64,000 nt of DNA, taken from the NCBI GenBank assembly GCA_037445065.1, contig JBBILD010000020.1, positions 1 through 64,000 of the forward strand, written 5' to 3'. This DNA is from Myxococcales bacterium. GTDB taxonomy: Bacteria > Desulfobacterota > Binatia > HRBIN30. Each line of letters opens with the position of its first letter. Within the stretch, counting starts at the first letter, position 1. Below the pieces are notes generated by a model. That model ran no database searches. It saw nothing but the letters and a program-made list of their open reading frames with translations, and was not told where the DNA came from. Both the position numbers and the translations under genes were made by a program. This document shows positions 3,843 through 57,700 of this stretch, one piece after another.

Positions 3843-4688
3843 ATGACGTGGAATGAGCCAACGCGCAGGGAGACTCGGGAACGGAGCAGGCCAACCGGAC
3901 TCGGGATCATCATCGGTGGTGTGCTGGCCGTGGTGCTGCTGTTCTTCGCCAACCCGATCACCGTAATTCCAGCCGGGCATGTCGGGGTCAAAGACTTTTT
4001 CGGCATCGTATCGCCCACGGTTTTGCCTCCGGGCGTACGGCTCGTGATGCCCTTCACCCGCGTGATCAAGCTGTCGGTGCGCACGCAGGAGATGAAAGAA
4101 GTCGCCGATGTCCCCTCGCGCGAAGGGCTGATCATGAACCAGGAGGTCTCCTTGCTCTACCGACTCGATGCTGCCCGTGCCCCCGAGGTGTACAAGACCA
4201 TCGGTACCAATTACTCCGAAGTGGTCGTCGAACCGACGTTTCGCTCTGCCATTCGCGAAGTCACCGCGTCCTACGAGGCCAAAGCTTTGTACTCTGCCGA
4301 GCGCGAGCGGATTGCCGCGGAGATTTTTCAACTTTTCCGCAAGCTCACTGCCGAGCGCGGCATCATTGCCGAGCAGGTCTTACTGCGCAAAATCGGCCTG
4401 CCGCCAGTGGTGGCGAACGCCATCCAAGAAAAGCTGCGGAGAGAGCAGGAAGCCGAGCAGATGAAGTTCGTCCTCTTGAAGGAGCAACAAGAAGCCGAAC
4501 GTAAGCGCATCGAAGCCAAAGGAATTGCGGACTTCCAGCAAATCGTGTCGCAAGGCATCTCTCCGCAACTGCTCGAGTGGAAAGGGATCGAGGCCACCGA
4601 GAAGCTGGCGAACAGCCAAAACGCCAAGATCGTCATCATCGGAAATCCGAAAACTGGCTTGCCCGTGATTCTCAGCACCGAGCGCTGA
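3843..4688 (+). CDS. SPFH/prohibitin (band 7) family membrane protein
   Basis: AAGGAGG RBS, N-terminal TM helix, VIPAGHVGV motif, coiled region EQQEAERKRIEAKGIADFQ. Confidence 0.93.
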   Translation: MTWNEPTRRETRERSRPTGLGIIIGGVLAVVLLFFANPITVIPAGHVGVKDFFGIVSPTVLPPGVRLVMPFTRVIKLSVRTQEMKEVADVPSREGLIMNQEVSLLYRLDAARAPEVYKTIGTNYSEVVVEPTFRSAIREVTASYEAKALYSAERERIAAEIFQLFRKLTAERGIIAEQVLLRKIGLPPVVANAIQEKLRREQEAEQMKFVLLKEQQEAERKRIEAKGIADFQQIVSQGISPQLLEWKGIEATEKLANSQNAKIVIIGNPKTGLPVILSTER

Positions 4689-5131
4689 GCAGCACGGACG
4701 CTACAAGGACGGAGCTTCCAAAAGGGCTCACCTCCAGCCTCAACACCGGCAGGCGTTCCCTGTTCGCAAAGGCCGCCGGCGTCTATGTGACTCGCTAGCG
4801 ACGAGCGGCATTGCCCCGCGCACGTCCAGCGGAGGCAACAATCACTTAGAGCGATGGCCAAGGGCTCCGTGCGCGCAGCCCTCCCCAAGGGCAGGCGCCA
4901 ACGTTGGCAAGTGTTCGCGTAGCCTTGACGGCGTAGCCCCAGTTGTGATGTATGCGCAGCACCCCGTTTCGGGGCAAGGGTAAGGATGCATACCTTCGGT
5001 CGTTCTATTGAGCGTGGTGGATTTGAGTGCGGCGCTGGGCACGGTCCAGCGGTTTGCGCGTCTGAAGAAGGAAAGAGCGCTACACCCAAGACCCATCACC
5101 CTAACGAAATCAGGCAAGCGAGACCGCTCGT

Positions 5132-8059
5132 ATGGATAAAAACATCGCTCAGCTGAAACTCGCGGCATGGCTGCACGATCCGCCGGAGAAGGCGCTGATC
5201 CTGTTTCGTACTCGCCGTGGCCATGAGGGGGGAACGGTAAAGACGTTACTCGAAGAAGCCCTCGGTTCGGCGGAAGTGCCCGACGTCGTCCGCACGGCCG
5301 ACCGCATCGCAGCCGCTGCTGATCGGCCGGACCGCCCTCGCCCTCCGGGCACGCATCCGAGCCTCTGGGAGCGAATCTACTTTCCAAAAGAGCCCGTTCT
5401 GATTCACCCGCTCTCAGGCGAGCAATACAAACTGTCGCCGCTCACCGAGTTGCACCCCGAAGCGCTGGAAGCGTTTGCCACCCAGCGCTTGCGGGAGCTC
5501 GTACGCGGCGCGGCAGAGGCTCCCGAGCGCGCGTTTTTGCGCCTATGGAGGCTCGCACCCGAGGTTCCCGATGCGCCGGACATCCAGTTTTTCTGGCGCC
5601 TACTGCCTGCCGATACACGCGTGCCGGATCATTCCATTTGGGAACACCTGTCGCTGGCCTCGGCGATCGCTGGGGCGCTGGCACACGAAGAGAAGCTCGG
5701 CCTGCTGGGCGTTGCCATCGGCCCCGTACAACCGTTCTTGCAACAAGGCCGCAGCACGCACGATTTGTGGGCGGGCTCGCACCTGCTGTCCGCGTTCACC
5801 TGGGAAGCAATGCGTCCGGTAGTCGAGGAGTTGGGGCCCGACGCGATCATTCTGCCCAGTCTGCGCGGGAATCCGTTCTGCGACGCGTGGCTCGTGCAAC
5901 GTGGCATAGTTGAACTGGCAGAACTCCGAACATACGAGCCGGGTTGGCAGCGCACCTCTGACGCGCACCCGCTGTGCGCCGCGTCGTTACCGAACCGCTT
6001 TCTGGCGGTCGTGCCTTTGTCCAGAGCCGGAAGTCTCGCGGAGGCCAGTGTTCGCTCGGTACGCGAGGCCGCTCTCGACTGGGCAAAAAAGGCGTGGGAG
6101 AAAATCCGCGAGTTAGCGCAGTTTGCGATTGCGCACGCCGACTTTGCCGCCTCACAACAAATCCCCGCGCAACTCCAGGGCTTTCCCGAAGTGCATTGGG
6201 CTTGGGCGGAGTGGCCCACTGCGATCGGAGAGGCACAAGTCGCGAAGACCAAAAGCGCCCTGGCCACCTTCGAGGCGGAGCAAAGCTTTTTCGATTCGCA
6301 AGCCTGGCGGCTTCTCTCCAAGGAAATCTCTGTGGCTGGAGCCTCGTTCTGGCAGCCAAATGCTGGGGTGCTGTATCCCGCCGTCTTCGATCTCGCTGAG
6401 CGCGCCCTGGCAGCGAGCAAAGCGACCCGTACCTTCGAGCAACTCAGCCAGCGCGGCTATCGCTGCAGCGTGTGCGGCGAGCGGGAGTGGCTCGCCGCCA
6501 GCGAAGGGGCGCTCGAGCTTCCCCGCGGGACGGCGCATCCCAGCGACCCGTGGCCGGCTGTCGCCAAGAGCCGCCCGGCCTGGGCGCGCGGCACCGAACA
6601 TTTGTGCGCGGTGTGCACGCTCAAGCGGCTGTGGCCAGCGGTCTTTTTCGAGCGGATCCGCGAGACCCTCGAAAGCACCGACTTGCAACGATTTGCGGTT
6701 TCGACACACACGATGGCCTCCGTGCCGGTCCTGCGCCGACTCGAAACGCTCGACGATGATGCGGCGCGCCGCATCGAACAAGCGGTGGCAGAACTCGAGC
6801 CGTCCGGCTCCGAGGCGGTGCGCTGGGTGGCTTTGCCGAGAGCGCTTGCCTCGGGAAAGCGCGCAGCACTGGGCCGCCGCTTGATCGCGGCGCAGGAGAG
6901 CCTGGACGATCGAGAGAGCCGCGGCGAGGACACGACGGTCCAGCGACACCAATTGGAGACCGTTTGCCGAACAGTGTTCGGTGTGCGCTTCGAAACGTAC
7001 TATGCCCTTCTGCTGCTCGACGGCGATCGAATGGGTGCTTGGCTCGCCGGAGAGAACCGCCCTAAATACGAACAACTGTGGCACCCGTCCGTGCGCAACA
7101 CGGTCCGCGATCAGTTCGCCTCGGAGGAAGCGATCCTTTCCTATTTAAACATGCGTGCACCCGCTTCACCCGCCTACCACACCGCGTTGTCCCGTGGGAT
7201 GGGAGATGTCGCTGTGCACGTCGTTCCTTTCGTGATCGAGGAGCTTTGCTACGGAAAGCTGCTTTACTCCGGGGGGGACGATGTGCTCGCCTTGCTGCCG
7301 GTAAGCGAACTCGTGCCCGCCATGGCTCTGCTGCGGGCGGTGTGGAGCGGGAAGTTGCCTTTGGCGGAGGAAAAATTGGGATGGCTCTTGCGCAGCCGCG
7401 AACGCCTCGGAGACTTTCAACTGGGAGGTGGGCATGTCGCCCTTGGCAGCGGCAAATTCACGCGCTTATTCCGGACTCTAGGAGAAAAGGCCAGTTGCTC
7501 CATTGGCGCCGTTGTCGCCCATCACACCGCCCCCTTGACTTCCGTTTTGCGCCAACTGCGAGCGGCAGAGCAAGGCGCTAAGCGCGCTGGCGGAAACAGC
7601 TTTTGCATCGTCCTCGACAAGCGGAGTGGGGACACGAGCGAACTCGTCGGAAGGTTTTCCCCAGCAAGTAATGATCCCCTGCAACGCACCACCCTCGGCG
7701 TCCTCTTACGCTTGCAGCACCTGTTCGAAAGAAAGGTATCGCGGCGCGGTGCCTACCTGTGCGCCGCCTGGCTTGCAGATCTGGCCGAGCACCCAGCACC
7801 CGCAGACATGCTCGCTGCCCTGATCGCATACCAACTCAAACGGGCGCTGCGTCCAGGCGAAGCCGCCGATTGGGTCGATGCCTTGGCACAAGACGTGGCG
7901 GCCGTTGCTCAGAAAGAGTGCCCTTCGGACCCTGCCGGCTGGCTCACGTGCCTGATCCAGCATGCGGAGTTCCTCGCCCGCCCGGAGCGCGTGGCGCGGC
8001 GGCGGGAACGAGGCAGCAAGGGGCGTGAGAACGTCGAGGCGGAGGAAGCGCGACCATGA
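5132..8059 (+). CDS. cas10: Type III-B CRISPR large subunit Cas10/Cmr2
   Basis: N-terminal LHDPPEK, LPADTRVPDHSIWEHL, IGPVQPFLQQGRSTHDLWAGSHLLS, Zn-finger CSVC/CAVC, palm motifs LDGDRMG and YSGGDD. Confidence 0.97.
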   Translation: MDKNIAQLKLAAWLHDPPEKALILFRTRRGHEGGTVKTLLEEALGSAEVPDVVRTADRIAAAADRPDRPRPPGTHPSLWERIYFPKEPVLIHPLSGEQYKLSPLTELHPEALEAFATQRLRELVRGAAEAPERAFLRLWRLAPEVPDAPDIQFFWRLLPADTRVPDHSIWEHLSLASAIAGALAHEEKLGLLGVAIGPVQPFLQQGRSTHDLWAGSHLLSAFTWEAMRPVVEELGPDAIILPSLRGNPFCDAWLVQRGIVELAELRTYEPGWQRTSDAHPLCAASLPNRFLAVVPLSRAGSLAEASVRSVREAALDWAKKAWEKIRELAQFAIAHADFAASQQIPAQLQGFPEVHWAWAEWPTAIGEAQVAKTKSALATFEAEQSFFDSQAWRLLSKEISVAGASFWQPNAGVLYPAVFDLAERALAASKATRTFEQLSQRGYRCSVCGEREWLAASEGALELPRGTAHPSDPWPAVAKSRPAWARGTEHLCAVCTLKRLWPAVFFERIRETLESTDLQRFAVSTHTMASVPVLRRLETLDDDAARRIEQAVAELEPSGSEAVRWVALPRALASGKRAALGRRLIAAQESLDDRESRGEDTTVQRHQLETVCRTVFGVRFETYYALLLLDGDRMGAWLAGENRPKYEQLWHPSVRNTVRDQFASEEAILSYLNMRAPASPAYHTALSRGMGDVAVHVVPFVIEELCYGKLLYSGGDDVLALLPVSELVPAMALLRAVWSGKLPLAEEKLGWLLRSRERLGDFQLGGGHVALGSGKFTRLFRTLGEKASCSIGAVVAHHTAPLTSVLRQLRAAEQGAKRAGGNSFCIVLDKRSGDTSELVGRFSPASNDPLQRTTLGVLLRLQHLFERKVSRRGAYLCAAWLADLAEHPAPADMLAALIAYQLKRALRPGEAADWVDALAQDVAAVAQKECPSDPAGWLTCLIQHAEFLARPERVARRRERGSKGRENVEAEEARP

Positions 8060-9183
8060 CCCCGCTTGATTTACGTGTCGTGAAGCCGCTCGACGTGCTG
8101 CACGTGCGCGGCAACCGCCTGTTCGAGGGCATGGGTGACGGGACCGCGGTCATGCCGCCTTGGCCGTCGCTGTTCGCCGGAGCGTTTCGCGCCCGAATGC
8201 TGACCGACGCCCAAGCGGAGCAGGATTATGTGGCAGGCACGATCCAGCCGCCTCTCTCGCTGGCGCTCGGTGAGAACTATCAAAGCAGAGACAAAGGCAG
8301 CTTTCGCGTCGCCTTCGCGTGCTTGATCAAGGGCCAAGAAGTCCTCGCACCCCTGCCTTCCGACGTCATCGTGTACGGAGATTCCGGCGGCCAACTCCGC
8401 GTTCGCCGGCTGCAGCCACGAAACCTGCCGGATGGGGTGGGTTCGAGCCACGCGGGAAGTGGACTTTCGCAGCTACCGGTCGTGGGTGAACGCTCGAAGC
8501 CAGCGGCCGGGCCGTGGTTTCTCACTGCTCAGGGCATCGCCCGTTGGCAGCAGGGCGAGACGCCCCTTGCCTCGGACCTCGTGCATGCAAGCGAACTCTG
8601 GCAGCATGACCCTCGCTTCGGCATCGCCCGTGATCGAGTGCGGGCTACCGTTCGTACGGGACTTTTGTACACGGCACGCGCCGTTTCGCTCGCACCGAGC
8701 GTGGCTTTTCTAGTCGGCATTCGCGGCGGCCATGGCTGCGTGCCCACAGGCGGGCTCCTGCGGCTGGGCGGGGATGGCCGCGGCGCCACTGTGAGCGAAC
8801 CGCACGGGGCGTTCCGAGACCCACCCTGGCAGCGCGTGCCGCGCAGCGACCGATTCACCGTTTGGCTCCTTTCGCCAGGGGCTTTCGCGGACGGATGGCG
8901 ACTCCCCGGATGCGATGCCACGGGAATTTGGCGCGTGGGCAAACTCGAAGCGCGGGTGGTTTGCGCCACCGTGCCGAGGCACGAGGTGGTAAGCGGGTGG
9001 GACCTCGCCCGACGCGCGCCAAAGCCTGCGCTACGCGTCGTACCACCCGGGGCCGTGTACTGGCTCGAGCGCATTTCCGGATCACTAGAAGAGCTCGAAT
9101 CGGTGCTCGAGCTCGGCGTGGGCAGTGCCGACCCGAGTCGCCGTGCGGAAGGCTTTGGCGCGGTCTGGTTTGGAGAGTGGTGA
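8056..9183 (+). CDS. cmr3: Type III-B RAMP Cmr3 (Cas5 group)
   Basis: PLDVLHVRGNRLF, PPWPSLFAGA, LRLGGDGR, SGWDLARRAPKP, VPPGAVYW, EGFG. ATGA overlap with cas10. Confidence 0.95.
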   Translation: MTPLDLRVVKPLDVLHVRGNRLFEGMGDGTAVMPPWPSLFAGAFRARMLTDAQAEQDYVAGTIQPPLSLALGENYQSRDKGSFRVAFACLIKGQEVLAPLPSDVIVYGDSGGQLRVRRLQPRNLPDGVGSSHAGSGLSQLPVVGERSKPAAGPWFLTAQGIARWQQGETPLASDLVHASELWQHDPRFGIARDRVRATVRTGLLYTARAVSLAPSVAFLVGIRGGHGCVPTGGLLRLGGDGRGATVSEPHGAFRDPPWQRVPRSDRFTVWLLSPGAFADGWRLPGCDATGIWRVGKLEARVVCATVPRHEVVSGWDLARRAPKPALRVVPPGAVYWLERISGSLEELESVLELGVGSADPSRRAEGFGAVWFGEW

Positions 9184-9239
9184 GAAACCGCAAGAACTGG
9201 GACCATCGGGGATGAAACGATTGCCAGTAGGAGGGAGGC

Positions 9240-10133
9240 ATGTTTGAGGCGAAGACGGTGATGATGCTCTATGCCGTGAGTCCAGTGCACATGGGTTCGG
9301 GCACTGCGATCGGCGCTATTGATAACCCGATCCAACGCGAGCGCCACACCGAGCACCCGATGCTCGCCGGCAGCGGGCTCAAGGGCGCTCTGCGGGATGC
9401 TTGGCCGCAGGATACGGACACGGACACGGTGTTTGGACCCGAGCCTGAGAAAGGGTCTGAGCACGCTGGGGCACTGTCAGTTGGAGACGCGCAAGTGGTG
9501 TTGTTCCCCGCGCGCAGCTTACGCGAGTCTTACGTCTACGCCACCTGCCCCACGGCACTCGCTCGCTTTGCACGCATGCTGGACATCGCTGGTGTCGGCA
9601 AGAGTATTCCTCCTATCCCCTCGCCGCCCGACGACGAGACGATGCAGTTGCCCTCGGATGGCGTAAAGCAACTGCGCAGCGCACAAACGCAGCGCGTCGT
9701 GCTCGAAACTTTCGCCTTCTCGCCGCAAGAATCGCAGGAGGCCGCAAGCTGGGGCAAATTTCTTGCCGGACGTCTGCACGACAACGTCGGCGCTGCTTTT
9801 AAGAAAAAGATCGAACGCCATCTCGCCGTGCTTTCTGACACTCGCTTCGGCTACTTCGTGCGCAACGCAACCCTAGTCGAACCACACGTGAGGATCGACG
9901 ATGAAACCGGCACGGCGGACGACGGCGGGCTGTTCTATACGGAGAACGTTCCGCCAGAAACCCTGTTCGCGAGCTTGGTCCTAGCCAGCCGCTCGCGCAA
10001 ACCAAACTCAGAGAACACTTCTGCGGCCGAAGTGCTCAGCAAAGTGCGCGAGCAATTCGAGGGCAAACCTGTGCAAATCGGTGGAGATGCCACCGTGGGC
10101 CGCGGTCTGGTGGTGGTGAGTTTTGCCGGCTGA
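9240..10133 (+). CDS. cmr4: Type III-B RAMP Cmr4 (Cas7 group, RNA cleavage)
   Basis: SPVHMGSG, IDNPIQRERHT with the catalytic Asp, GSGLKGALR, Gly-rich loop QIGGDATVGRG. Confidence 0.97.
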   Translation: MFEAKTVMMLYAVSPVHMGSGTAIGAIDNPIQRERHTEHPMLAGSGLKGALRDAWPQDTDTDTVFGPEPEKGSEHAGALSVGDAQVVLFPARSLRESYVYATCPTALARFARMLDIAGVGKSIPPIPSPPDDETMQLPSDGVKQLRSAQTQRVVLETFAFSPQESQEAASWGKFLAGRLHDNVGAAFKKKIERHLAVLSDTRFGYFVRNATLVEPHVRIDDETGTADDGGLFYTENVPPETLFASLVLASRSRKPNSENTSAAEVLSKVREQFEGKPVQIGGDATVGRGLVVVSFAG

Positions 10134-10149
10134 TTCGCGGAGGTGCGAC

Positions 10150-10515
10150 ATGGCCAAGACACTCGATCAAGAACGCGCCGAGTTCGCATGGGCGAAAACC
10201 GAGAAGGCCAATAAGGAATTCAAGAACCTAGTCAGCGGCGCCCCCTCGCTGGTGATGAATAACGGCCTCATGCAGGCGCTCGCCTTCTGGCAGGAGCGGC
10301 GAAAACAGACCCATCACGCGCTACTGGTGGATGCGTTAACGGAGTGGCTCGGAACGCGCGTCTTCCGCCTGGCAAAGAAAGAGGCTCAGTTCGCGCAGGT
10401 CATGAGTAGGCTGCAGCAGAGCGACGCGGACTCGTATTTCCAAGCTACCGAAGAGGCGCTCGCCATCCTCCGCTGGCTGCGCCAATTCGCCAAAGCCCGT
10501 GTGGGAGACAACTAA
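10150..10515 (+). CDS. cmr5: Type III-B small subunit Cmr5
   Basis: TLDQERAEFAW, PSLVMNNGLMQALAF, EALAILRWLRQFA. GGAGG RBS before the ATG at 10150. Confidence 0.95.
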   Translation: MAKTLDQERAEFAWAKTEKANKEFKNLVSGAPSLVMNNGLMQALAFWQERRKQTHHALLVDALTEWLGTRVFRLAKKEAQFAQVMSRLQQSDADSYFQATEEALAILRWLRQFAKARVGDN

Positions 10516-10516
10516 C

Positions 10517-11989
10517 ATGCCTGCCGCTGTTCCTGACTTTGTTGGCAGCGACTTCTCGTCCTCCCCACCTGGGCACCGCTATCGCCTCTACTACTCCGGC
10601 TGGTGGACGAAAGAGGTCGACGAGCGTAGGATCGAGGACCTAGAGAAGAGGATTCGCGGGCAAGCAGCAGGGTCACGCCAAGTGCGCAACTTACTGGCCC
10701 AAGTCCGAAAACTACGGGGCCATCTGCAGACGACAGGGGACTTCACGGAAAAGCACGACCAGGAAAACCTTTCCTGCCTGCGCGACATTGCAGAGTTGAG
10801 CCCTGGCTTTGAACGACAAGCGCAGGCCTTGCGAGAGCGGCAGAGCCGCCTCCTGGCGGGTCTGCCCGAAGCCTCGTACCTCTGCGTTGCCGCACTCACG
10901 ACCTCTCCGCTCGCCGTTGGTACCGGGGTCGAGCACCCGATCGAGAATGGGCTTTTGTTCTTCGACCCACACGGCCTGCCCTACGTCCCTGGAAGCACCC
11001 TCAAGGGAATGTTGCGCCGCGCGGCCGAGGAACTTGCACTGTTCGAAGCCAACGCGAACGGCTGGACTCTCGGCCTGGTGTGGTGGTTCCTCGGCCTCGA
11101 CCCCACCGCTTCGTATCTAGACCCTAAAGGGCAGGCCGAGTCCACCTGGTGCGAAGCTTACCGAGAGCATGTACAGCGCCACGTGGGGGCGCAACCATCT
11201 GTAACTTTCGCATGGATCGCTTCCCTTCCCGCAGTTCGGGAACGCATGGAGACTCTGCGATGCGATTTACGGGGCTTTTTGCTGGGACTCCAAGGAGCGA
11301 GCGAAGAGGCGCGGCGCAACCGCGACGCTCTCCGCGTGCAAGGCACATGGCAATGCTGGGACGCTTTCTTTTCTCCCCCGCGCATGCGGGTGGAAATCAC
11401 CAACGTCCACTTCAAGGACTATTACCAGCAAGGCAACGCGCCGCATGAGACGGGAAGCCCCACTCCGGTGTACTTTCTTGCCGTGGATGCAGGAGTGGAG
11501 GTGGCCTTCATCGTGCGCAACGCAGAGCGCCGTGGAGAACTCGGTGCTCCCCCCCATTCGGATTGGAAGGGGCTTGCGCAGAGCGCGCTCGAGCGGGTGT
11601 TTCTTCAGCTCGGCATCGGTGCCAAGTCGAGTGTCGGATACGGCCGCTTCGAGATGACCGGGGCGAATGTTACGGGAGTCGCCGGGCAGGGTGTCTCGGC
11701 GCACACAGCCGGCCCTGCGCCTTTAGCCCCGGACACCCGGGCCCAATCCGTCGAAGCGGGTGCAGTGTGGACGTGCACCGTCGTGTACAAGCCCAACACT
11801 CGCACCCTCGAGGTACAGCACGAGAACCAGAAAGCGTCCGCTTCCGAGCAAGAGACCAAGGCCCTTCTCGAATCCTGCCCGCAGGAAATCCGAGACGCTC
11901 TTCTCGTTCGACGCAAAGCACGCGCGCGTGTCAGGGTGGTTCGCCTGGGCAAGGGTTTTCGTATCGAGGCCTTGGAGCGAGCCTCATGA
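10517..11989 (+). CDS. cmr6: Type III-B RAMP Cmr6 with C-terminal extension
   Basis: MPAAVP start, GTGVEHPIENG, GLPYVPGSTLKG, NVHFKDYY, GIGAKSSVGYG. Confidence 0.95.
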   Translation: MPAAVPDFVGSDFSSSPPGHRYRLYYSGWWTKEVDERRIEDLEKRIRGQAAGSRQVRNLLAQVRKLRGHLQTTGDFTEKHDQENLSCLRDIAELSPGFERQAQALRERQSRLLAGLPEASYLCVAALTTSPLAVGTGVEHPIENGLLFFDPHGLPYVPGSTLKGMLRRAAEELALFEANANGWTLGLVWWFLGLDPTASYLDPKGQAESTWCEAYREHVQRHVGAQPSVTFAWIASLPAVRERMETLRCDLRGFLLGLQGASEEARRNRDALRVQGTWQCWDAFFSPPRMRVEITNVHFKDYYQQGNAPHETGSPTPVYFLAVDAGVEVAFIVRNAERRGELGAPPHSDWKGLAQSALERVFLQLGIGAKSSVGYGRFEMTGANVTGVAGQGVSAHTAGPAPLAPDTRAQSVEAGAVWTCTVVYKPNTRTLEVQHENQKASASEQETKALLESCPQEIRDALLVRRKARARVRVVRLGKGFRIEALERAS

Positions 11990-13017
11990 AGCTCCTCCGA
12001 TACAAACTCGAGGTAGACTTCATCACTCCTGCCTTCCTCGGCAACGCCGAGCAAGCGGCAGAATGGCGCACCCCGCCGTTCAAGGCGCTGCTGCGGCAGA
12101 TGTGGCGGCTCGCTACTGCCAGCGAGCTGGGCTTCGACCATCGCAAGCTGCGTGAGGCAGAAGGGGAACTGTTCGGCCGGGCAGACCGCGACGGGCGCCG
12201 CCGCAGCGAGGTCACCTTGACGCTGCAGCCCTGGCAGCCGGGCGAACTTACCGAATGGCCCCCGCAGCCTAAGGTCAACCACCCAGAGGTCCAGCGCAAC
12301 CCGCAGATCGGCGCTCACCTTTACCTGGCTTATGGGCCGCTCGGCCCGAAAGGTCTCAACAAAGGCCGGTCCGCGATCGCCCCCGGAGTCAAGGCGACAC
12401 TCACCCTTTGGGTCCCCGAGTCTCAACGGCATTCCATCGAGCGCGCCCTCCAGCTCATGCACTTACTCGGCACGGTCGGCGGGCGCAGCCGCAACGGTTG
12501 GGGCTCGGTGCAACTCTCTAGCAAGACTGGGCTCGTCATTCCTCAGCTCGGTACTCCGCAGGCAAAGCAAGTGCTCCAAGCCATTGCACGCCGATGGGAG
12601 GAGTGCCTCGATCTCGACTGGCCCCACGCCCTCGGCCGCGACGACCGGGGACTTCTGTGCTGGCGGACGCGCGGAACAACGGCGAACTGGCAAGATCGGA
12701 AGAGCCGACTGGCCGAAGTGAAAATCGCCTTGCGTACGCAGTTTGCGTTCCCCGAAGAGAGCGAGGGGCACCCAACGCCCCGCGAGCGACACGTGCTGGC
12801 GTATCCGGTCACCAACCACTCTGTTTCGAGCTGGCCGAGCGACTTCCGCATGCCGAACCAACTTCGCTTCAAGGCACTGCGCGAGGGCAACAACTTGCGT
12901 GGCCTGATTTTCCACACCCCGTGGGTGCCCAGAGGCAAAGGGTTAGAGTCGCTCGCTCCCCAGGTTTGGCCGCAGGTGCACAAAAAGCTCGATGCCCTCT
13001 GCGATCGTTGTCCCTAA
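11986..13017 (+). CDS. cmr1: Type III-B RAMP Cmr1
   Basis: ATGA overlap with cmr6, FITPAFLGNA, WRTPPFKALLRQMWR, EGELFG, GTVGGRSRNGWGS. Confidence 0.93.
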   Translation: MKLLRYKLEVDFITPAFLGNAEQAAEWRTPPFKALLRQMWRLATASELGFDHRKLREAEGELFGRADRDGRRRSEVTLTLQPWQPGELTEWPPQPKVNHPEVQRNPQIGAHLYLAYGPLGPKGLNKGRSAIAPGVKATLTLWVPESQRHSIERALQLMHLLGTVGGRSRNGWGSVQLSSKTGLVIPQLGTPQAKQVLQAIARRWEECLDLDWPHALGRDDRGLLCWRTRGTTANWQDRKSRLAEVKIALRTQFAFPEESEGHPTPRERHVLAYPVTNHSVSSWPSDFRMPNQLRFKALREGNNLRGLIFHTPWVPRGKGLESLAPQVWPQVHKKLDALCDRCP

Positions 13018-13028
13018 ACGAGCAGCGA

Positions 13029-14572
13029 ATGAGTCGCTTCCACGAGCTTTCCGAATCCGAACTCGCGGAACGGCACCGTGAAGCGGCGTACAGGCTCAAG
13101 CAAGCCATTGCGGCAAGGGAAGTGGCGGGACGCGAAGACCCACAACTGCGCGGCCTGTACCGGGGGAGGTGCTGCCACTGGAGGAAGAACGAGTTCGCCG
13201 CCAAGGGCTGGGGCGGGAAGCTGTGGACCTTCTGTTCGTCACGGTCGGGACGCAGGCGGACGCGCCTACACTTGCCCTGCTGGGCACCCCGGCACGCCGG
13301 GTTGTCACCCTGCACACCAGCGGTTCTGGCGAATGCTACGCACAACGGGCAGTACAACGGGCGGGCCTTGCACCGCTGGTGGCGATCCCACGAGAAATCG
13401 GTGATGGCAGGGATCCGCTCAGGCTGTACCGCACCGTGCGCGAGGAGTGGGAGCGCGCCGGGCGACCGGAACGGGTCGCGGTAGACCTCACCAGTGGGTT
13501 CAAGGCCATGAGCACAGCGGCGTAGCCGCGGCCAACGCTATTGGCGCCGAGGTACAGTACGTGGATGCGGACCAAGAGTCGGCCAAACCGTTTTGGGTCT
13601 ATGCGCGCGTGATCACCTTGCCAGACCCGTTTGTGGAACTCGGGGTCCGCGAGCGGCAACGCGGTCAGAGCCTTCTCAGCCATGGCGCATGGCAGGCGGC
13701 GTATAAAGTGCTCCACGACCTGTACCGGCGCACTCATGATCCAGAGGACCATTTTTTCGCGTGCGTCGTGCAAGGGTTACACCAGCTCGAGCGCCTTGCA
13801 TTTGCAGAAGCTGAGAAATGCCTGCGGCAAGCCTACGAGATTCTCAACTCGAAGTCCCTTGATGCTCAGCCGGTACGAGTTCTGGCAAACACGATCGTAG
13901 CTCTCATGGAAGGCGCAGGCCGCCTTGCACAAGTAACAAGGAATACAGAATTTGTGGAACCATCCGGCGGCGCGGCAAGAGCCCGCTCCCGACTGGACCT
14001 CAGCGATCATCGAATCCGCGATTTGATTGCATACCTCATTGCGGCGGCCCGGTGTCGACTCAATCGTGAGGAGCCAGACTTCGCGGTTCTGTTCGCGTAT
14101 CGTGCCACCGAGATGGTCTTACAGTGGCGCTTCGCAATTCGTACCGGGCAACTTCCCGACGCGGTTGATTGGCAGCAGCTCTTCGACCGCGCTGGAGTGA
14201 GCGGTCAGGAATTCACGAATCGTTACAACCAAGAAACGCAGCCGGCTCAACCACTGCGAGAGGACACTTTGCCTTCCAAATTACCTCGGGATCTCCTTTA
14301 TCGGCTGCTGCGAATCCTCTGGCCCGACGACGTGAGCCAAGCGGAGCCACGAGTGCAAAAAATTCGATGGCCTCGGCAACGCGCGCAACGCTAGCGTGTT
14401 AGCGCACGGCTTCGAGTGCATCGAAAAGAATCGCGCCGAGCTGCTGCTTCAACAGGCTGAGGCGTTTTTTGAACGCTTACTCGATCTCGAAGGGGTGCCG
14501 GCTTCTGAGCGTGATCAACTGCGCCAGCGTCATCGGTTCCCGGATTTCCACATCCTAAATACGGCAGGCTAG
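13029..14572 (+). pseudogene. CRISPR-associated CARF-HEPN protein (TIGR02710/Csm6-like), three frameshifts
   Basis: Four in-order fragments: MSRFHEL...GLYR / EVLPL...LFVTVGTQ...VDLTSGFKAMS (CARF) / GVAAANAIGAEVQYVD...AYRATEMVLQ / KFDGLGNARNASVLAHGF...NTAG* (HEPN R...H motif). Shifts near 13162-13166 (G5), ~13518 and 14357-14362 (A6). Confidence 0.85.
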
Positions 14573-14685
14573 CCGGTCACGTCCGTCTCCGGCTCCAATG
14601 AAGACCGGGCCACTCACCGCTGATGGCAAGCGCCTCTGCCACCCTGAAGCAGCCGGCTCTGCGAGAAAGCGGCCATCTGCGTAGG

Positions 14686-15024
14686 TTAGCGCACGTAAAT
14701 GGCGAGGTTGACAATCTTGCCATTCGAGTCCACCTCGAACACGTCCAGCACTTGAGTTGGCACGGTGGCAAAGGGGCTACTCCCGCTCAGTTCCGCCATG
14801 GCAATCGTGTCGGCAGCGATCAGGCGGCGGATCTCCACGGTGACTTCCGCCAGGAACACCAACCTTTCGTAAAACTCGCGAATCTCATGATGACCGCGAT
14901 ACGTGCCGGTCGGATGGTGCAGCGTCGCGTCCGGCGCGAACAACCCCATCAGCGCATCGCTATCCCGCCGATTGATCGCGTCCACGTAACGTTCTGCCGA
15001 CGTCCGAGCAGGCGATGCATCCAT
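14686..15024 (-). CDS. SnoaL/NTF2-like protein
   Basis: YVDAINRRD, LFAPDATL, GHHEI, FEVDSNGKI pattern. Lies just downstream of the P450. Confidence 0.88.
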   Translation of the reverse strand: MDASPARTSAERYVDAINRRDSDALMGLFAPDATLHHPTGTYRGHHEIREFYERLVFLAEVTVEIRRLIAADTIAMAELSGSSPFATVPTQVLDVFEVDSNGKIVNLAIYVR

Positions 15025-15033
15025 CGGAGTGCC

Positions 15034-16287
15034 TCAAGCGGGGCGCAGGGCCACGGGCATGTGGCGAAGCCCGGTGTGTTTATTGCTGCGGGTCCACTCG
15101 ACGGGGCCGACCAGTGCGATTTCCCTAAAGCGAACGACGAGTTCTTCGAGCATGATGCGCATTTCGGCCCGCGCGAGGTTGGCACCGAGGCAGAAATGAT
15201 TGCCGTGGCCGAAGGCGAGATGCGGGTTGGGGTTGCGGCGAATGTCAAAGTCGAACGGGCGCTCGAATACACTCTCGTCGCGATTCGCCGAAGCCCACCA
15301 CAGGGTCACCTTGTCACCAGCGCGGATCCGATGCCCACCCCACTCCACGTCGCGCGTCGCCGTGCGGCGGTTGTACGGAGTGGACGACGCCCAGCGCAAC
15401 ATTTCTTCGACGGCCAGCGGTACGAGCCCCTGCTCCGCACGCAGCGCGTGCCACTGATCGGGATGGCCGATCAGGGCCATCAGACCGATGGCGAGGGAAT
15501 TGCGCGTGGTCTCGCTGCCGGCGGCAATCAACAAGTTGAAGAACATTTGCAGTTCGAGCGTGGTGGGCGGTTCGAGCGAACCCTCGCTGTTCTCGACCTG
15601 GCCGTGGACGAAGGCAGAAAGCATGTCGTCGCCCGGGCAGCGGCGCTTCTCCTCGATCAGGCGGCTCCCGTACTCGAACATGGCGGCGTGCGCGGCGCGG
15701 GTCTTCTCGCTTTGCTGTCCGAGGTCGCGATCGTCGTAATCCAGCGTCGCGTTCGCCCACTGGAAGAGCTGGTGCCGGTCCTCCTGCGGCACACCCAGCA
15801 AGCGAGCAATGGCTTGCAACGGAAGCTCGGCTGCGACCTCGGTGACGAAATCGCACGCGCCCCGTGCTGCGACGGCGTCGAGGATCGCGCGTGTGCGCTG
15901 CCGCAGCTCTGCCTCCATCGCCCGCAGCGCGCGCGGCGAGACGCTCGGGGTCACCAACCGCCGCAGCCGCAGGTGGCGCGGGTCGTCCATCATGTTGAGC
16001 AGGACACCGGCAGCAAAGCCCGACGGCAGGTCTTCGAGGATGGTCCCGCCTCCGCCCCGCGCCCCTCCCGTATGCGACGAAAACAGGTCTGGATCGGAGG
16101 CAGCCCGCTCAATGTCAGCATACCGGCTCAGCACCCAGAATCCTTCCCCGTCCGGGGTGTGCTCCGTAGGCGGGTGGAACCATACCGGCGCATGCTTGCG
16201 CAGCAATGTGAAGACGTCGTGGGGGAACCCGTTCGCGAAGCGGTCGAGATCTGTAAGGTCTAAGGTGTCGAGCCAACCGGCTGGCAT
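15034..16287 (-). CDS. Cytochrome P450 (resembles CYP125/CYP142-type lipid or steroid oxidases)
   Basis: I-helix AGSETT, ExxR (EEMLR), heme motif FGHGNHFCLG. Alternative start at 16335. Confidence 0.95.
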   Translation of the reverse strand: MPAGWLDTLDLTDLDRFANGFPHDVFTLLRKHAPVWFHPPTEHTPDGEGFWVLSRYADIERAASDPDLFSSHTGGARGGGGTILEDLPSGFAAGVLLNMMDDPRHLRLRRLVTPSVSPRALRAMEAELRQRTRAILDAVAARGACDFVTEVAAELPLQAIARLLGVPQEDRHQLFQWANATLDYDDRDLGQQSEKTRAAHAAMFEYGSRLIEEKRRCPGDDMLSAFVHGQVENSEGSLEPPTTLELQMFFNLLIAAGSETTRNSLAIGLMALIGHPDQWHALRAEQGLVPLAVEEMLRWASSTPYNRRTATRDVEWGGHRIRAGDKVTLWWASANRDESVFERPFDFDIRRNPNPHLAFGHGNHFCLGANLARAEMRIMLEELVVRFREIALVGPVEWTRSNKHTGLRHMPVALRPA

Positions 16288-34956: not shown

Positions 34957-37900
34957 TCAACCGAGCAAGCGGGCCAGTTCCGCCGGCAACTGCGAGAACT
35001 GGAAGGATCCGCGGAACAAGAGTTCGCGGACGGTGGCCGCGTAGAATTGTTCCTCGCGCACCGGTGCCGGCTCGAGCAGGACAAGGAGAGGCAGATCCGC
35101 AGTGCCTTCCTGGTTGCGGAGTCCCGCAATGGCGCGCGCGACCCCAGAAGTCCCCGGCGCCAAATGCACCACCGCTGCTTCCGGCGCCACGATGGAGGTG
35201 AACTCCAGCGCCTGCTTCCCGTCGAGCACGATCGAGGTGGACACATTCGCCTTCGCAAGCGGTTCACGGAGTTTGCCCATTGCATCCACGTCGGCGCTCA
35301 CTGCCAGCAAGCGGCGTAGCTTCGGGCGCAACCAGTTGAGCTGTTCGAGGGCCCGCGCCGGGTCGGGCGGCCACAAGTCGAACTCGGCGCGGCCGAAGCA
35401 GAAGCCCCGCTCCCCGCTCGCCGGCATGACGTACGCCAACACTTTCACCTGGCGGCAGCGGGGGTCACGCCGCAGCCCGAGGAGTGTGCGCCAGGCCAGC
35501 GGGCCCGCTCCCAGGTTGATCAGGGCGTAGCCCACGTTCGCGCCTGCCGCGGCCTCGGCTGCCCGTTCGTCGAAGGGCCGGGAAGTCACCTCGAACCCGG
35601 CGGCACGCAGCGCCGCCGCAGCATCGCTCGCCCGCTGCCCCGTTTCGAACAACACGATCTCCCTGCCACCCACCGGCTCCGCCACACTCACCCCTTCCTC
35701 TTCGGCATCGGCCGCGCTGGTTTCCGCTGGGGCTGCCCCTCGTGGCAAAAGACGCTCCGGGGGGACTTCTTGCACCTCGCGCGCCAAAGCCGTCTCCAGC
35801 TTGGCGTGGCCGTTGCCACGCGACAGTTCGGCCACGGCCTCCTGGGCCGCCCGCAAGGCCTCGGCGAGTTCGTCGCGCTCAGCGGTGGTGTGGGAGAGCG
35901 CCGCGCGTTGCGCCGCCAGTTCTTGGTCGAGCTGCTGCAAGCGACTCTCGCTTTGCGCCAAGCGTTCCGCCAGTTCGATGCGCTCCTGGTCGCCGGCCAG
36001 TTTCTCTTCTTGCAGGGCTTGCCATGCGGCCCGCAGCTCGGCCAAGCTGCGCCGCTCGGCTTCGAAGTCTTGCTGCTGTTGGGCCAGCAACGCCTCCATG
36101 CGCTTGCGTTCCTCGGCAAGCTGCTGGCGATGCTCTTCGAGGCGGCGCTGTTCTTCCGCCAGGCGTGCCAGCAACTCGGCCCGCTCTTGCTCGCTGCGCT
36201 GCCGCTCTTCTTCGAGTGCAGCCCGTTGCCGCTCGCTGCGCGCAAGCTCGCCGTGCAACGAGGACAGCAGCTGTTCGAGTTCGCCCACTCGGCCAGCGAG
36301 CGCCGCAGCCTGTTCCGCCACCGCTTGCTGCTCGCTCGCCTTCTGGCGCCACGCTTCCTCCTGCTCCCGTAAGCGTTGCAGCTCGCGGTCAATCTGCTCG
36401 CAGCGGCGCTCGCTCTGGCCGAGTTCCGCTTCCAACCGCCGGTAGCGTTCGAGGACGCTGGCCCGCTCGCTTTCCTCGCGCTCTGCCCGTTCGCGCCAGT
36501 TCTTGGCCTCCCGCTCGGCTTCCTCCAAGCGGTGGTGGAGTTGGGCGCGGCCGGCATTGAGTTCGGCCACCTGGCGGCGCAAGTTCTCGGTCAGCGCCTG
36601 CAGTTCTCCAACCGCGGCCGCGTGCGCGGTAGCCAAGTCGCGCGTGCGCTTCTGGTGATCGGCCAAAGAGCGCTCGAGCAGCATTTTCTCTTGCTCCAAG
36701 GCGCGCAAGCGCGTGCGTAAGGCCTGCACTTCTTGGCTCAGAGTCTGCGCCTGCTCGTCTTGCGAGGCGTGCGCTCGCTCGAGTTCCGCTTGCAGCCGCT
36801 GCTGCTCCTCGCGCAACGCGCGGTTCTCCTGCTCCAGGCGCGCCATGTCCGCCTCGAGCGCACGCCGCCGGCTGTCGGCCTCCGTCTGCTCCTGTTCTAC
36901 GCGCTGCACCCGGGCCCGCCACTCCACCAGTTCCTGGCGTGCGCGCTCCGCTTCTGCCTGGGCGCTCGCCAGGCTGCGCTCCAGAGACCTGAGCCTTTGC
37001 TCTGATTCCTCCCCCTGCCGAGCCCAAGCCGCCGAGACCTCGTCGAGCCGGCGTTGCGCTTCTTGCGCACGTTGCTGCGCTTCTGCGTACGCTTGCTGCA
37101 GCTCGCCTAGGCGTTTGGCGGAGACATCGGCACTCGAGGCTCGCTGTTCGAACTCTTGCCGTTCGCGCTCCAGTTCGGCGCGCAAACTCTCCTGTGCAGC
37201 GCGGGCCTTCTGCAGCGCCTGTTGCCACACCTCGCGTTCCCGTTGGAACTGCGCCGTAACTTCCTCCACGCGCGCCTCTGCATCGCGGGCCCGCTCCCGC
37301 GCCTGTGCCACTTGGCGGCTGAGTTCTTGGAGTTCTGAGAGCGCGCGCTCGCGCTCGGCTCGCGCCCGTGCCACTTCTTCCCCAGCTTGCGCCGCGCTCG
37401 CCGCCAACTGCTCGAGTTGCCGTTGCGATTGGGCCAACTGTTCGCCCAACTGGCGCGCTTGCTCGAGGGCGCGATCCCGCTCGCTGCGCGCCTCTTCTGC
37501 ACTTTGCTGGAGTTCGAGCAAGGAAGCCCGTTGCGCTTCGATGCGCTTTTCGCTCGCCACCAGCTCTTCCTGCAGGCGGCGTCGCTCCTGCTGCAAGCTC
37601 GCCACGCTTTCCCGCAAGGTGGCGAGCTTGCGGTCCACCATCACCTCGCTTTCTTGGTGGACCTGACGCAGAACCTCGAGCTCTTCCACCGTGGCGACTC
37701 GCGCCCGTTCCGCCGCCGCCAACTGCCCTCGCACCTCGGCAAGCTCCTTCTCCAGGGCCACCACCCGCGCTTCCCACTCGCTTGCCGTTTGTGTTTGGGC
37801 ACGAGCCGCCTCGGTTTTCGCGGTGGCAAGCTGCTGTTCCAGCTCCACCACCTGCTGCGCCAACGCCTCGGCTTGGCGGGCTACGGCCGCCTTGTCCGCC

Positions 37901-40560: not shown

Positions 40561-41475
40561 GGCGTCATCCACCCTACTGGAGAGCCGAGGGCTCACACTG
40601 GCGCGGTTCCGGCCGACCGAACTGCCCGTACTGCGAAACCAACGAGATCGTCCCCAGCGACACGATTCTGCTGCCTCTTTCCACGAGTGAGCGAGGCGAA
40701 TGCGCAAGAGCCGTACCACTTGCCAATCTCGCGTTGGGCAAAACAAGGAGGTGGGAGCCGCCGATGCGATCACCAGCGAAGTGTTACGCAGTGAACGCTT
40801 CTGTCACTTTGCGAACAGGCCCGTAGCGGCGACTACGGCGCGCCGAGCGAGCCGGGGTGAAGCCACAGCAGGGTTCCCGGAACCGCTCAGACCCCCCGCA
40901 TCACGCTACGGCTTCGTCTCCGCGGCTTTCGAGAGATGTGGTAGCAAAACGCCGCAGCGTGCTAGCGGATCACCACCGCCTCCGCTCCGTCCCGTCATCA
41001 CCCGTGCACACCTACGGCGCCCCTTGCTCGTCCGCGGGCGAGGTCTGAACCAGACGCACATGATGGCTCAAGCGGACCCATGCCAGCGCTAGAGACTCTG
41101 CGCGAGCGGGGCGCACACCCTCCGAGCTGCGATCACGCTTCGCTAACGGGCCTTTGGCGATCCACGTGCGGCAAGCTGCCCAGGCGGGGACGACCGTGCG
41201 AAGCGGGAGCGTGCGACCGTTCCAGCGGACTCCGCGCGATCGTTGCCGCCAAAACCTCCGCACCGCCGTGCTGCTCCAGTTTTCCCGGCAAGCGAAACCA
41301 CGCTCCGCACACCGTCCTGCCCTCCCCTGCGCCAGGCTCGAAGCCCTCCGGACGTTCGGATCGTGGATGCCTGCGGGGCAAAGCCCACGCCCATTCGACG
41401 AGTCGCGGGAAGTGCCCTCTTCGCCAACGCCCGCGGAAACAGGGCGACGCTGCCCCGGCCAGGCCGGGACCGTGT

Positions 41476-54790: not shown

Positions 54791-57700
54791 TCACGGCAGT
54801 GGCCGCGCCTTACAGGTGAGGCGCACCATCGTGCGCTTGTGGCGACCATTGCCAGCGACAGAGTGAATGCGAATCGGCAAGCGCGCGCGTGCGCTCTCCC
54901 GCGGTGTTGGCGAAGCCGCAAACACTGTGAGGGTACGCGGTGCGCTGCACAAATCCTGCTGCCCGGGACCAAGCGGCGCTTGGTTCGTAAAACCCGCACT
55001 CGGCTGACCCGGATCGAAGAGCTGCGTGATCGCTTGCCCCAAGGCCGCCAGATTCGCCTGATACTGGCTCGCGACCACCGGGTGCAGCGACAGTGCCGCC
55101 CGCAAGGGACGCACCGAGAGCTGTGCAATCCCGTTGTTCCCTGCCGGTGAACAGGCCGGCAAGGTTGGGTCCGCCACATTCACGCACGCCACCGTGATGA
55201 ACCCGCAGCGGCCGGGCAGCGGGTCGAAGTCGCAGGTCGGATCCTGATCCACGCAAGTCTGGCGGAAGTCCGGCAAGCCCCAGCGGTCGAGCGGGTTGTT
55301 GGGGTTCACCACCACCAGCTCCACCTGGCAGCTCTTGCGGTCGCGCGCAGGCTTCTTGCGGTTGCCGCGAATGTAGCGGCCTGACGCGCCCGCCACGTAG
55401 CGGCACTGAAAGGCCGGGTCGGAAGGGCAACTCTCCACGCTGCCGTCGGGAGCCGGCGGCGGGCCAGCGTACTGGTTTCCGTCGTCGCACTGCTCGCCAG
55501 CCTCTACGATCCCGTTCCCGCAGCAGTTCAGGGTCACTTGCGAGAGACACTGCCCCGAGCCGTCGCAGGCATACTTGCAGAGGTTGCCGAGCGGGTTGGG
55601 CCCGGCCGAATCCGGATCGGGTCCCCAGCACTGCGTACCCGCGGGTTCATGGTTGGCAACGCAGCTTCCGGCGCCATCGCAGGTGTCAGGGTTGGTGCAG
55701 TCGGTATCCGTCGCGTCTCCGCAAGAAGTACCGCTAGGCGCGAAGGCATCGGCGGGGCAAGACTGATCGGGAAGGCCAGGGCAATGCTCGGCGACGTCGC
55801 ACTCTCCTGCTTCCACCCGGCACACTACGCTGCTTGCCGCGAACCAATCCACAGGACACGCTTGTCCAGGCACACCGCTACACACTTCGTCCGGGTCGCA
55901 AGCGTCCCCCGAACCAAAATCGCACACCACCCCGCTCGCTTGCACCACGTCGGCCGGACAGGGCTGGTCGGGCACGCCGGGGCAAAACTCACTCGGGTCG
56001 CAGACCGCATCGCGGCCTCCGTCCGCCGCCTCGGTACCCAATCGGCACAACACCGTGCTGGGGGCATAAACGTCGGCCGGACACGGCTCTCCAGGCACAC
56101 CGCTGCACACTTCGTCCGGGTCGCAGCCATCGCCCGAACCTGGGTTGCACACCGTGCCGTGGGACTGCAGTAGATCCGGCGGACAATCCGCGCTGGTGCC
56201 GGTGCAAAATTCATCTGGATCGCACACATTTCCACCCGCCGGCGCTCCTGAACCGGGCCGGCAAAGAACACCGGCCGGCTCGAGCGAGTCAGCGGGGCAA
56301 GTGTCGCCCACCCCGTCACAGCTTTCCGCCACATCGCACAGCCCCGCCGGCGTCCGGCACACCGTACCGAACGGCTGCTTTACATCTGCCGGGCACGATG
56401 CACTGGTGCCCGAGCAGACCTCCGCCGCATCGCACTCGCCGGCTGCGGCACGGCACTCGGTGCCTGCAAGCGTGAAGGTGCAATCCGCGGCACAGCACGA
56501 CTGCGGCTGGCCGTTCAACGGACCAAGGTCGCACTCCTCCCCGAGATCCACCGCTCCGTCACCGCAAAAGGCATCAAGGGAAAAGACGTACGCGGAGCCC
56601 TGATCGCTCGCGAAATCCACGTCATCTTCCCGCGATCCCACAACAAGGGTATCCCCCGACAAGGCGACGCCGTAGCCAAAAGAGTCTTGCGCCTCGCCGT
56701 CGGAAGCCACCAATTTGGCGCTCTCCGTCACGACCCCGCCCCAGCCAGCGCCTGGCTTTTTGTAAACATAAACAGCCCCTTGGTTGGGTTTCGACCCAAC
56801 GTCGTGGAAGCGGGCGCCAACCACCACAACGTTCCCGACAAGTGCCACCGACATACCAAACTCGTCCCCTCCTTGCCCGTCCGAGGCGATCAGCTTTGCT
56901 GTTTCCGAGATGCTTCCGGTCCAGCCTCCCGAAGGTTTGACGAACAAGTACGCCGCTCCTTGATTGGGGTTGGTGTTGCCCGCACCGTAACGCGCGGTCA
57001 CCAACACTGTGTCCAGAAAAATCGCCACCGAAAAACCGAACTCGTCGCCTGCGGCGCCGTCCGAAGCGGTCAGCTTCGCTGCCTCGGTGAACGTGCCGGT
57101 CCAGCCACCAAGTGGTTCCAGAAACACGTATGCTGCACCCTGATCTGCGTGATTGCTGCCGGGACCATTGCGGGCACCGACCACAATCGTATCCCCAGAG
57201 ATTGCAACCGATTGACCGAAGTTATCATTTCCAGCCCCGTCTGACGCGGTGAGCTTCGCGTTTTGGGTTAACAACCCGCTCCAGCCGGCGGGCGGTTTGA
57301 CGAAAACGTACGCTGAGCCGCGGTCGCCCTGCGAGCCGATGTCGTCCTGCCAGGCCCCGACTACGACCGTGTCGCCTGAAATGGCAACGGAATTCCCGAA
57401 CTCGTCAGAAGACGCGCCATCGGAAGCAACGAGTTTGGCACTCTGGCTCAGGGTACCGCTCCACCCTCCGGCAGGCTTGATGAACACGTATGCAGAGCCC
57501 CGATCCGTCCCGCCCGCGCGCCGAGCCCCGGCCACCACCGTATCCCCAGAAATGGCGACGGAAACGCCAAGCCAATCCGAAACACCCGCGTCCGAGGCAA
57601 CGAGCTTGGCCGCTTCGTTGACCGTGCCACTCCAACCACCAGCGGGCTTCACGAACACATAGACGGAACCATAGTTCGCATCGGTAGTGAACGGTGCGCC

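Follow-up and report, generated by a model that had tools for sequence, protein, structure and literature searches.

A type III-B (Cmr) operon lacking cas6 and array and followed by a csm6 pseudogene, in a genome with a second III-B locus

The cmr operon and the csm6 pseudogene

The DNA stretch analysed here (the window) comprises bases 1-64000 of contig C20 (JBBILD010000020.1) of a Myxococcales bacterium, the assembly of which measures 3.79 Mb in 46 contigs, with an estimated completeness of 97.7%. On its plus strand, at 5132-13017, the window carries a type III-B (Cmr) CRISPR operon of six intact genes, cas10-cmr3-4-5-6-1; according to the open reading frame (ORF) map and family scans, neighbouring genes lie end to end or share a few bases. 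An earlier note on this DNA had described such a packed operon with an HD dyad, a GGDD motif and the Cmr4 aspartate, and family scans and translations confirmed this. The note had, however, extended the Cmr operon to 14572. The cmr1 gene stops at 13017, and the sequence from 13029 to 14572 is a seventh gene that had been missed, a csm6 pseudogene.

The first gene, cas10 (cmr2; 5132..8059), encodes 975 amino acids (aa), is intact and matches TIGR02577 with 227.8 bits (cut-off 79.4; E-value 2.7e-67), in addition to PF12469 and PF22335. The best relatives of its product among solved structures are Cmr2 chains. It is followed by an intact cmr3 (8056..9183; 375 aa), which covers the full PF09700 profile (188 bits, 4.8e-55), far over the Pfam cut-off, but reaches only 77.1 bits on TIGR01888, under the cut-off of 100.4. 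The backbone RAMP protein is encoded by cmr4 (9240..10133; 297 aa, intact; TIGR02580, 222 bits, 1.3e-65). In its translation Asp28 lies inside GAIDNPIQRE, and we take this residue to be the catalytic aspartate, as in Pyrococcus Cmr4. The small subunit gene cmr5 (10123..10515) encodes 130 aa from a TTG start, with an ATG 9 codons downstream, and was recognised by PF09701 (95.9 bits, 2.5e-27) and TIGR01881 (5.7e-13). The cmr6 gene (10499..11989; 496 aa from a GTG start) matches TIGR01898 (102.3 bits, 3.7e-29) and PF03787 (3.8e-16).

Orthologues from two related genomes, G002 (same family) and G031 (same order), could be aligned to residues 7-953 of Cas10, residues 3-375 of Cmr3 and residues 1-296 of Cmr4, the last with 51% identity. 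For Cmr6 only residues 7-386 align, leaving the C-terminal ~110 aa (11660-11989) unaligned; this tail has no family match. Matches to cmr6 are long in some relatives too (up to ~1.25 kb), and a C-terminal extension may be common in the clade.

The last gene (11986..13017; 343 aa), whose ATG overlaps the cmr6 stop, encodes a Cmr1-like RAMP protein that matches PF03787 with 24.1 bits (cut-off 22.1; 6e-05) and gave no match to TIGR01894. It is 26-60% identical to a gene adjoining cas10 in 69 of 80 related loci, which are described below, and shows weak similarity (25% identity, E 8e-05) to the Cmr1 of a second III-B locus in the same genome, on contig C13, which does pass TIGR01894. Its place after cmr6 is the same in G031 and in three further related loci (L025, L038 and L060). 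The probable assignment as Cmr1 is based on position, RAMP membership and homology to cas10 neighbours in relatives, not on the Cmr1 model.

Translation of cas10 gave the motifs WLHDPPEK (H15-D16), LLLDGDRMG (D630-G-D632) and YSGGDDVL (G714-G-D-D717), together with zinc-finger cysteines. An alignment was made of 73 sequences (the Cas10 of the window, 71 relatives and the second copy of the genome, on C13), in which the window protein has the consensus residue in 205 of the 241 columns with a conservation of 90% or more, including H15, D16, D630, D632 and G714-D717. The GGDD palm and the upstream acidic pair are thereby retained, and cyclase activity is predicted. Beside H15-D16, the HD region has the conserved residues H31, D57, D64, H92, D161, D166, H167 and H172. 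R119 and A130 stand in two columns where 90% or more of the relatives have H and D. Decay of the HD site was considered for these and not upheld, since both columns vary in loci of Thermoanaerobaculia as well, and the column of R119 also in the C13 paralogue.

The csm6 pseudogene (13029..14572, plus strand) would amount to ~514 codons if read through several frames, and it has the layout of a CARF-6H-HEPN protein of the TIGR02710 family. Piece A (13029..13160) holds the N-terminal 44 codons from an ATG. Piece B (13166..13525) holds the CARF domain, with DLLFVTVGTQ and DLTSGFKAMS, and ends with a TAG at 13523-13525. In the next frame, piece C (13516..14394) covers 6H and the first part of HEPN, and in a third reading piece D (14342..14572) covers the end of HEPN with RNASVLAHG (R-x6-H; RNASVLAH at 14387-14410), up to the TAG at 14570-14572. 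Using blastx, the region 12901-14700 was found to be colinear with the whole length of its eight best full-length relatives (P0004-P0011), with the frame switching along the way. Intact relatives measure 505-534 aa; all five that were scanned with PF09670 passed its cut-off, as did both of those scanned with TIGR02710. Piece B is 43-54% identical to residues ~40-180 of the eight intact relatives and corresponds to TIGR02710 positions 14-88. Piece C is 26-33% identical to their residues ~160-445, corresponds to TIGR02710 positions 118-286 and weakly matches PF22205 and PF09670 (positions 7-61). Piece D is 39-48% identical to their last ~65 residues and corresponds to PF09670 positions 114-150 and TIGR02710 positions 350-380. 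Like the TIGR02710 Csm6 RNases, the pieces from 13166 to 14572 are colinear with TIGR02710/PF09670 and include R-x6-H; unlike them, the gene is frameshifted, and we file it as a pseudogene of the family.

The frameshifts at 13516-13522 and at 14342-14361, the latter at a run of six A residues, are certain. One more, at ~13125-13165 in a run of five G residues, is probable; it is supported only by P0004, whose residues 8-31 match weakly. Because of the frameshifts, a full-length protein cannot be read from this gene. Sequence from a second sample, X2, covers the region: a contig of 1334 nt spans 13187-14520 with 9 substitutions and no gap, and another spans 12900-13167 with zero differences. 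The frameshifts are real, because the X2 contigs carry them without a gap, and the pseudogene state is common to two strain variants. An assembly or sequencing error was rejected as their cause, the X2 contigs being gapless over all three zones and the 7.9 kb of neighbouring genes clean. Programmed frameshifting was set aside, as it would require two or three shifts of different sign within one gene. A further run, X3, gave no coverage of the csm6 region. In X2 the 9 substitutions in 1334 nt of pseudogene stand against 0 in the 268 + 187 nt covered on either side, which are few data.

When the middle piece was searched exhaustively with HMMER against 1.84 billion cluster representatives, 38 proteins reached E <= 0.001, 19 of them E <= 1e-10. 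The best non-self matches were 451-534 aa in length and aligned over their own residues ~160-445 only. A word-indexed protein search with a 315-aa csm6 piece returned just one fragment of 246 aa, 99% identical, which corresponds to the 1334-nt contig of X2. The same piece gave nothing at E <= 0.001 against the genomes of 40 relatives, which reflects a limit of sensitivity, since G002 holds a distant TIGR02710 member.

CRISPR-Cas loci elsewhere in the genome and in relatives

The statement in the earlier note that the window contains no array, cas6 or cas1/2 was borne out by repeat scans and by Cas6 and Cas1 models. Tandem Repeats Finder gave just four repeats of 2-2.5 copies in the window, and a spaced-k-mer scan of all 46 contigs placed no array on C20. 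Cas6 models had no match on C20 and matched a single place, on contig C13; the Cas1 model had none on C20 and matched only on C45 and C44. No cas2 was seen in the window, cas2 having been looked for by ORF scans and not by a genome-wide model search. Two copies of cas2 were found in the genome by these ORF scans (C45 and C44).

A search for Cas10 in the genome found two loci only, that of the window and a second, complete III-B locus at 505-13292 of C13 (in C13:1-16000; minus strand), 0.5 kb from the contig start. Its order is a gene for a CARF protein of the NE0113 family (411 aa), cas10 (1031 aa), cmr3, cmr4, a 162-aa ORF, cmr6, cmr1, cas6 and a CARF-adenosine deaminase gene. The 162-aa ORF stands in the position of cmr5 and has no family match. 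The cas6 (C13:2882-3988, minus strand) matches PF10040 with 58.6 bits, over the cut-off. In the last protein (738 aa) a CARF region is fused to an adenosine deaminase, which is the Cad1/CAAD kind of effector as portrayed in passages of PMC11645235 and PMC12993439. The Cas10s of window and C13 are 31-34% identical and the Cmr4s 31%; the two loci are therefore old paralogues and not the product of a recent duplication.

Two arrays were found by the spaced-k-mer scan. Array A, with the 37-nt repeat GTCTCAAACCCCTCTCGGGGAACGTGTGCCTTCGGCC, occupies the end of C10 (19655-20000; five repeats) and reappears at C45:12-49. On the other strand its repeat ends in the CCCCGAGAGGGG hairpin followed by TTTGAGAC, and the first repeat on C10, farthest from the leader, is degenerate. 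At C45:12-3451 an adaptation module consists of the array A repeat, a leader of ~400 nt, cas2 (PF09827), cas1 (TIGR00287, 290 bits) and the gene for a CRISPR-associated primase-polymerase of 566 aa (NF040561, 225 bits, cut-off 200; PF22548 AEP-TOTE). The primase-polymerase is adjoined by a 407-aa TPR protein; in G002 the gene after that for the TIGR02710 protein (L095:2620-3888) encodes a similar one.

Array B, with the repeat GTTTCCGCGCTTCTACGAGCGCGGCCCCATTGAAGC, has three repeats where C44 ends and one at the end of C27, and adjoins the type I-G genes csb2, cas2 and cas4/cas1; C4 opens with an N-terminal fragment of cas3g. Over these stretches (C44 642-7565, C4 1-4855) the type I-G system seems to have been rearranged. 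On C44 a full csb2 (525 aa) is accompanied by a second ORF (261 aa) matching only the C-terminal half of Csb2, and on C4 a 153-aa ORF matching bits of both Cas3g and Csb2 is followed by a 524-aa ORF of no assigned family and then by a TIGR02710 Csm6 gene. This last gene (C4:3164-4855) is an intact paralogue encoding 563 aa (212.5 bits); pairwise comparison of the window csm6 with it gave no significant similarity. The CRISPR arsenal of this genome is rich, with two III-B loci, a type I-G system, an adaptation module with a primase-polymerase, a CARF-deaminase and two other CARF proteins.

Scanning one genome per species, we obtained 80 loci with a Cas10 36-44% identical to that of the window, mostly from Beta- and Gammaproteobacteria and from metagenome-assembled genomes of Thermoanaerobaculia. 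The proteins were compared with these loci by tblastn (E <= 1e-4); many loci are cut by contig ends, and misses are not to be read as absences. Homologues were present for cmr3 in 77 of the 80, cmr4 in 74, cmr5 and cmr1 in 69 each and cmr6 in 67. The Cas6 of C13 and the NE0113 protein each had a homologue in 50/80 loci and the CARF-deaminase in 4/80, and the csm6 pieces of the window in 0/80 at this threshold. An array finder returned 26 rows in 23 loci. In 24 rows, from 22 loci, the repeats are of the array A family, closing with a hairpin and then ATT[A/G][A/C]GAC; the other two, both in L066, are a type I-like repeat ending in ATTGAAGC and a non-CRISPR repeat. The complete III-B loci of this Cas10 clade resemble the window in their subunits (Cas10 36-48% identical) but, where their contigs reach, differ from it in having a cas6 (50/80), NE0113 (50/80) or an array (22/80), of which the window has none.

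Of 40 other genomes from the family and order of the organism, 7 had a Cas10 match at E <= 1e-10, G002 and G031 being the best two. The Cas10 of G002 was 48% identical in this search and 44% by tblastn, and that of G031 44% and 40%, respectively. In G002 the locus runs NE0113-cas10-cmr3-4-5-6-cmr1-cas6, followed by an intact 505-aa TIGR02710 protein (217 bits) and a TPR protein. In G031 it runs NE0113-cas10-cmr3-4-5-6-cmr1, followed by a 613-aa protein of the TM1812 family (TIGR02221) and then cas6. The order cas10-cmr3-4-5-6-1 is common to the window, G002, G031 and the Thermoanaerobaculia loci L025, L038 and L060. Compared with G002 and G031, the window is without the upstream NE0113 gene, and between cmr1 and csm6, the place of cas6 in the others, it has just 11 bases. 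Judged by gene content, the locus of the window is a pared-down version of what related genomes carry in fuller form. On the G031 contig (C132, L096; 14561-18174) cas6 is followed by the gene for a REP-associated tyrosine transposase, and fragments resembling cas6 occur at 243-1211.

Source of crRNA and state of the locus

In our opinion the window very probably holds an accessory III-B (Cmr) interference module that most likely borrows its CRISPR RNA (crRNA), that has lost or never had a cas6 and an upstream CARF gene of its own, and whose own Csm6 is dead. Since it is without cas6, the module would have to obtain mature crRNA from elsewhere. Pre-crRNA from the arrays on other contigs would be cut by the single stand-alone Cas6 of the C13 locus. 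Array A is the likeliest candidate source, because its repeat family accompanies relatives of the window Cas10; array B may be a second one, with processing presumably by Csb2, as in type I-G systems. If the operon is expressed, crRNAs with an 8-nt repeat tag would be loaded into both Cmr complexes. Upon binding of a complementary transcript the window complex would cleave RNA via Cmr4, and binding of the target would activate both the HD nuclease of Cas10 and its synthesis of cyclic oligoadenylate (cOA). The cOA could act only via CARF effectors encoded elsewhere, namely the CARF-adenosine deaminase and the NE0113 protein of C13 and the TIGR02710 Csm6 of C4.

Comparable arrangements have been described. 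In Sulfolobus islandicus REY15A, which has a type I-A system next to Cmr-alpha and Cmr-beta, the evidence points to Cas6 as the sole enzyme that processes pre-crRNA (passages of PMC3737332), and the precedent of two Cmr systems in this species also appears in passages of PMC4288192. As there, two divergent Cmr modules (here with Cas10s 31% identical) occur with one stand-alone cas6 and a type I system. Unlike in S. islandicus as covered in those passages, the single cas6 lies within the other III-B locus and not in the type I locus. The present genome also differs in being bacterial and of high G + C content, its type I-G system has a Cas5/Cas6 fusion of its own (Csb2) and the window module carries a dead csm6. 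Excerpts of Silas et al. 2017 (PMC5576922) report many III-B systems without cas1-cas2, cas6 or arrays, for which communal arrays are shared. In the Marinomonas III-B system treated there, the operon is likewise without a clear cas6 and its crRNAs are processed by the Cas6 of another system. As far as those excerpts go, the Marinomonas locus differs in having RT-Cas1 adaptation genes and an array of its own, and its donor is a type I array, whereas here the likeliest donor is the type III-type array A, with use of array B possible.

Several points weigh against this interpretation. The sharing of crRNA is deduced from gene content only, and the predicted 8-nt tag of array A, UUUGAGAC, does not share the first base of the AUU... 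tags found in 22/22 related loci. The assembly is fragmented: the window contig ends 5.1 kb upstream of cas10, so that 'nearby' is bounded on that side, and both arrays lie at contig ends, so that neither the distances between loci nor the array sizes can be read from the assembly. Sample X2 and the probable source sample belong to one study; X2 has only ~4x depth and provides one semi-independent confirmation of the pseudogene. The Cas10 of the window is off the consensus at 36 of the 241 columns of high conservation, where the median for a sequence is 4. Moreover, a locus that is being lost altogether could just as well explain why cas6 and NE0113 are gone and csm6 is dead.

This last point leads to the alternative that the whole locus is a non-functional leftover of an NE0113-cas10-...-cmr1-cas6-csm6 locus, in which cas6 and NE0113 were deleted, csm6 was frameshifted and the cmr genes have not yet been hit. 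Such decay would fit with G002 and G031, which carry NE0113 and cas6, and in G002 also an intact TIGR02710 gene, where the window has nothing or a pseudogene. It would also fit with the deviations of Cas10 and with the third-position G + C content of the csm6 pieces, which at 0.61 is below that of the cmr genes (0.69-0.76). However, the 7.9 kb of cmr coding sequence is without a frameshift or stop while the adjoining 1.5 kb of csm6 has 2-3 frameshifts; by a hand calculation, the cmr genes would have 10-15 had they been hit as often per length as csm6. The contrast suggests that selection maintains the Cmr complex. In addition, every catalytic motif that was checked is kept, many of the deviant Cas10 columns vary also in Thermoanaerobaculia loci and in the C13 paralogue, and the pseudogene is shared with a strain that differs by 9 substitutions in 1334 nt, which leaves time for further hits. 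We consider a decaying remnant unlikely.

It is far less probable still that a conventional locus has been split by the assembly alone, with its own cas6 and array just past the left end of C20. The window does start at a contig end, 5.1 kb upstream of cas10, and CRISPR arrays break this assembly, both being found at contig ends. Against this, neither end of C20 has a repeat or partial repeat, the left end falls in repeated coding sequence and not in an array, and the 5 kb from there to cas10 hold an SPFH protein gene and ORFs without cas family matches. Furthermore, only one stand-alone cas6, within the C13 locus, was found in the genome, the completeness of which is estimated at 97.7%, and in the orthologous loci cas6 comes after cmr1, a place taken in the window by 11 bases and csm6.

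The earlier note had offered crRNA supplied in trans or, alternatively, a stand-alone RNA-sensing module; the first part is favoured by the cas6, two arrays and two adaptation modules on other contigs, while nothing was found in favour of the second, which is not needed. A sensor that works without crRNA or with a non-canonical guide has in its favour solely the absence of cas6 and array from the window and is scarcely credible, since the six subunits are ordinary Cmr family members, their relatives adjoin cas6 and arrays, the genome supplies a cas6 and two arrays, and the sequence gives no hint of a different guide.

The note had also named a cas6 and array elsewhere in the genome as what would make this an ordinary split III-B locus. 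This is what was found: the arrangement is ordinary, because cas6, arrays and adaptation genes lie on other contigs. III-B modules without cas6 or array that share crRNAs are textbook, and the locus matters little for general CRISPR biology; the additions to knowledge are descriptive only, being the shared csm6 pseudogene, the reduced locus and the rich CRISPR arsenal. A statement such as 'no cas6/array in window' needs to be checked against the whole assembly, including arrays at contig ends, before a locus is called unusual. The locus is a tidy natural case of modular decay, in which the interference complex has been kept and the dedicated cOA-activated RNase lost in a genome with three other CARF proteins, and it may be useful as a small model for studying cross-talk of co-resident type III systems.

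More speculatively, the accessory module might be kept by selection as a second, differently tuned sensor, using crRNAs from the I-G array (tag AUUGAAGC) and/or array A and giving output only via the CARF-adenosine deaminase, NE0113 and the C4 Csm6. Both III-B loci and the I-G system would then form one wired network, and the death of csm6 would represent a hand-over of output and not decay. We put this forward tentatively and regard it as rather doubtful.

Flanking genes and other features of the window

Family scans confirmed the flanks given in the earlier note, an SPFH/Band 7 gene (3843-4688) to the left of the operon and, to the right, a SnoaL_2 gene (14686-15024) and a P450 gene (15034-16335), both on the minus strand. 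The remaining genes of the window are housekeeping genes or have no family, and the family scan of the window found no further cas families. A consensus scan of 4500-15200 for promoters and terminators gave 0 promoter-like and 10 terminator-like sequences, with no excess over shuffles.

Two large minus-strand genes stand out. A 1938-aa ORF at 34957-40773 strongly resembles coding sequence in its composition and matched no Pfam family at E <= 0.001, and at 54791-58684 a 1297-aa protein is encoded that has seven FG-GAP_2 repeats and a disintegrin domain. The assembly seems to be broken by cysteine-rich repeat genes, which are also found at the ends of several contigs (C3, C33 and, on its left side, C20); at the left end of C20, a string of ~29 nt at position 1 occurs again at ~139.

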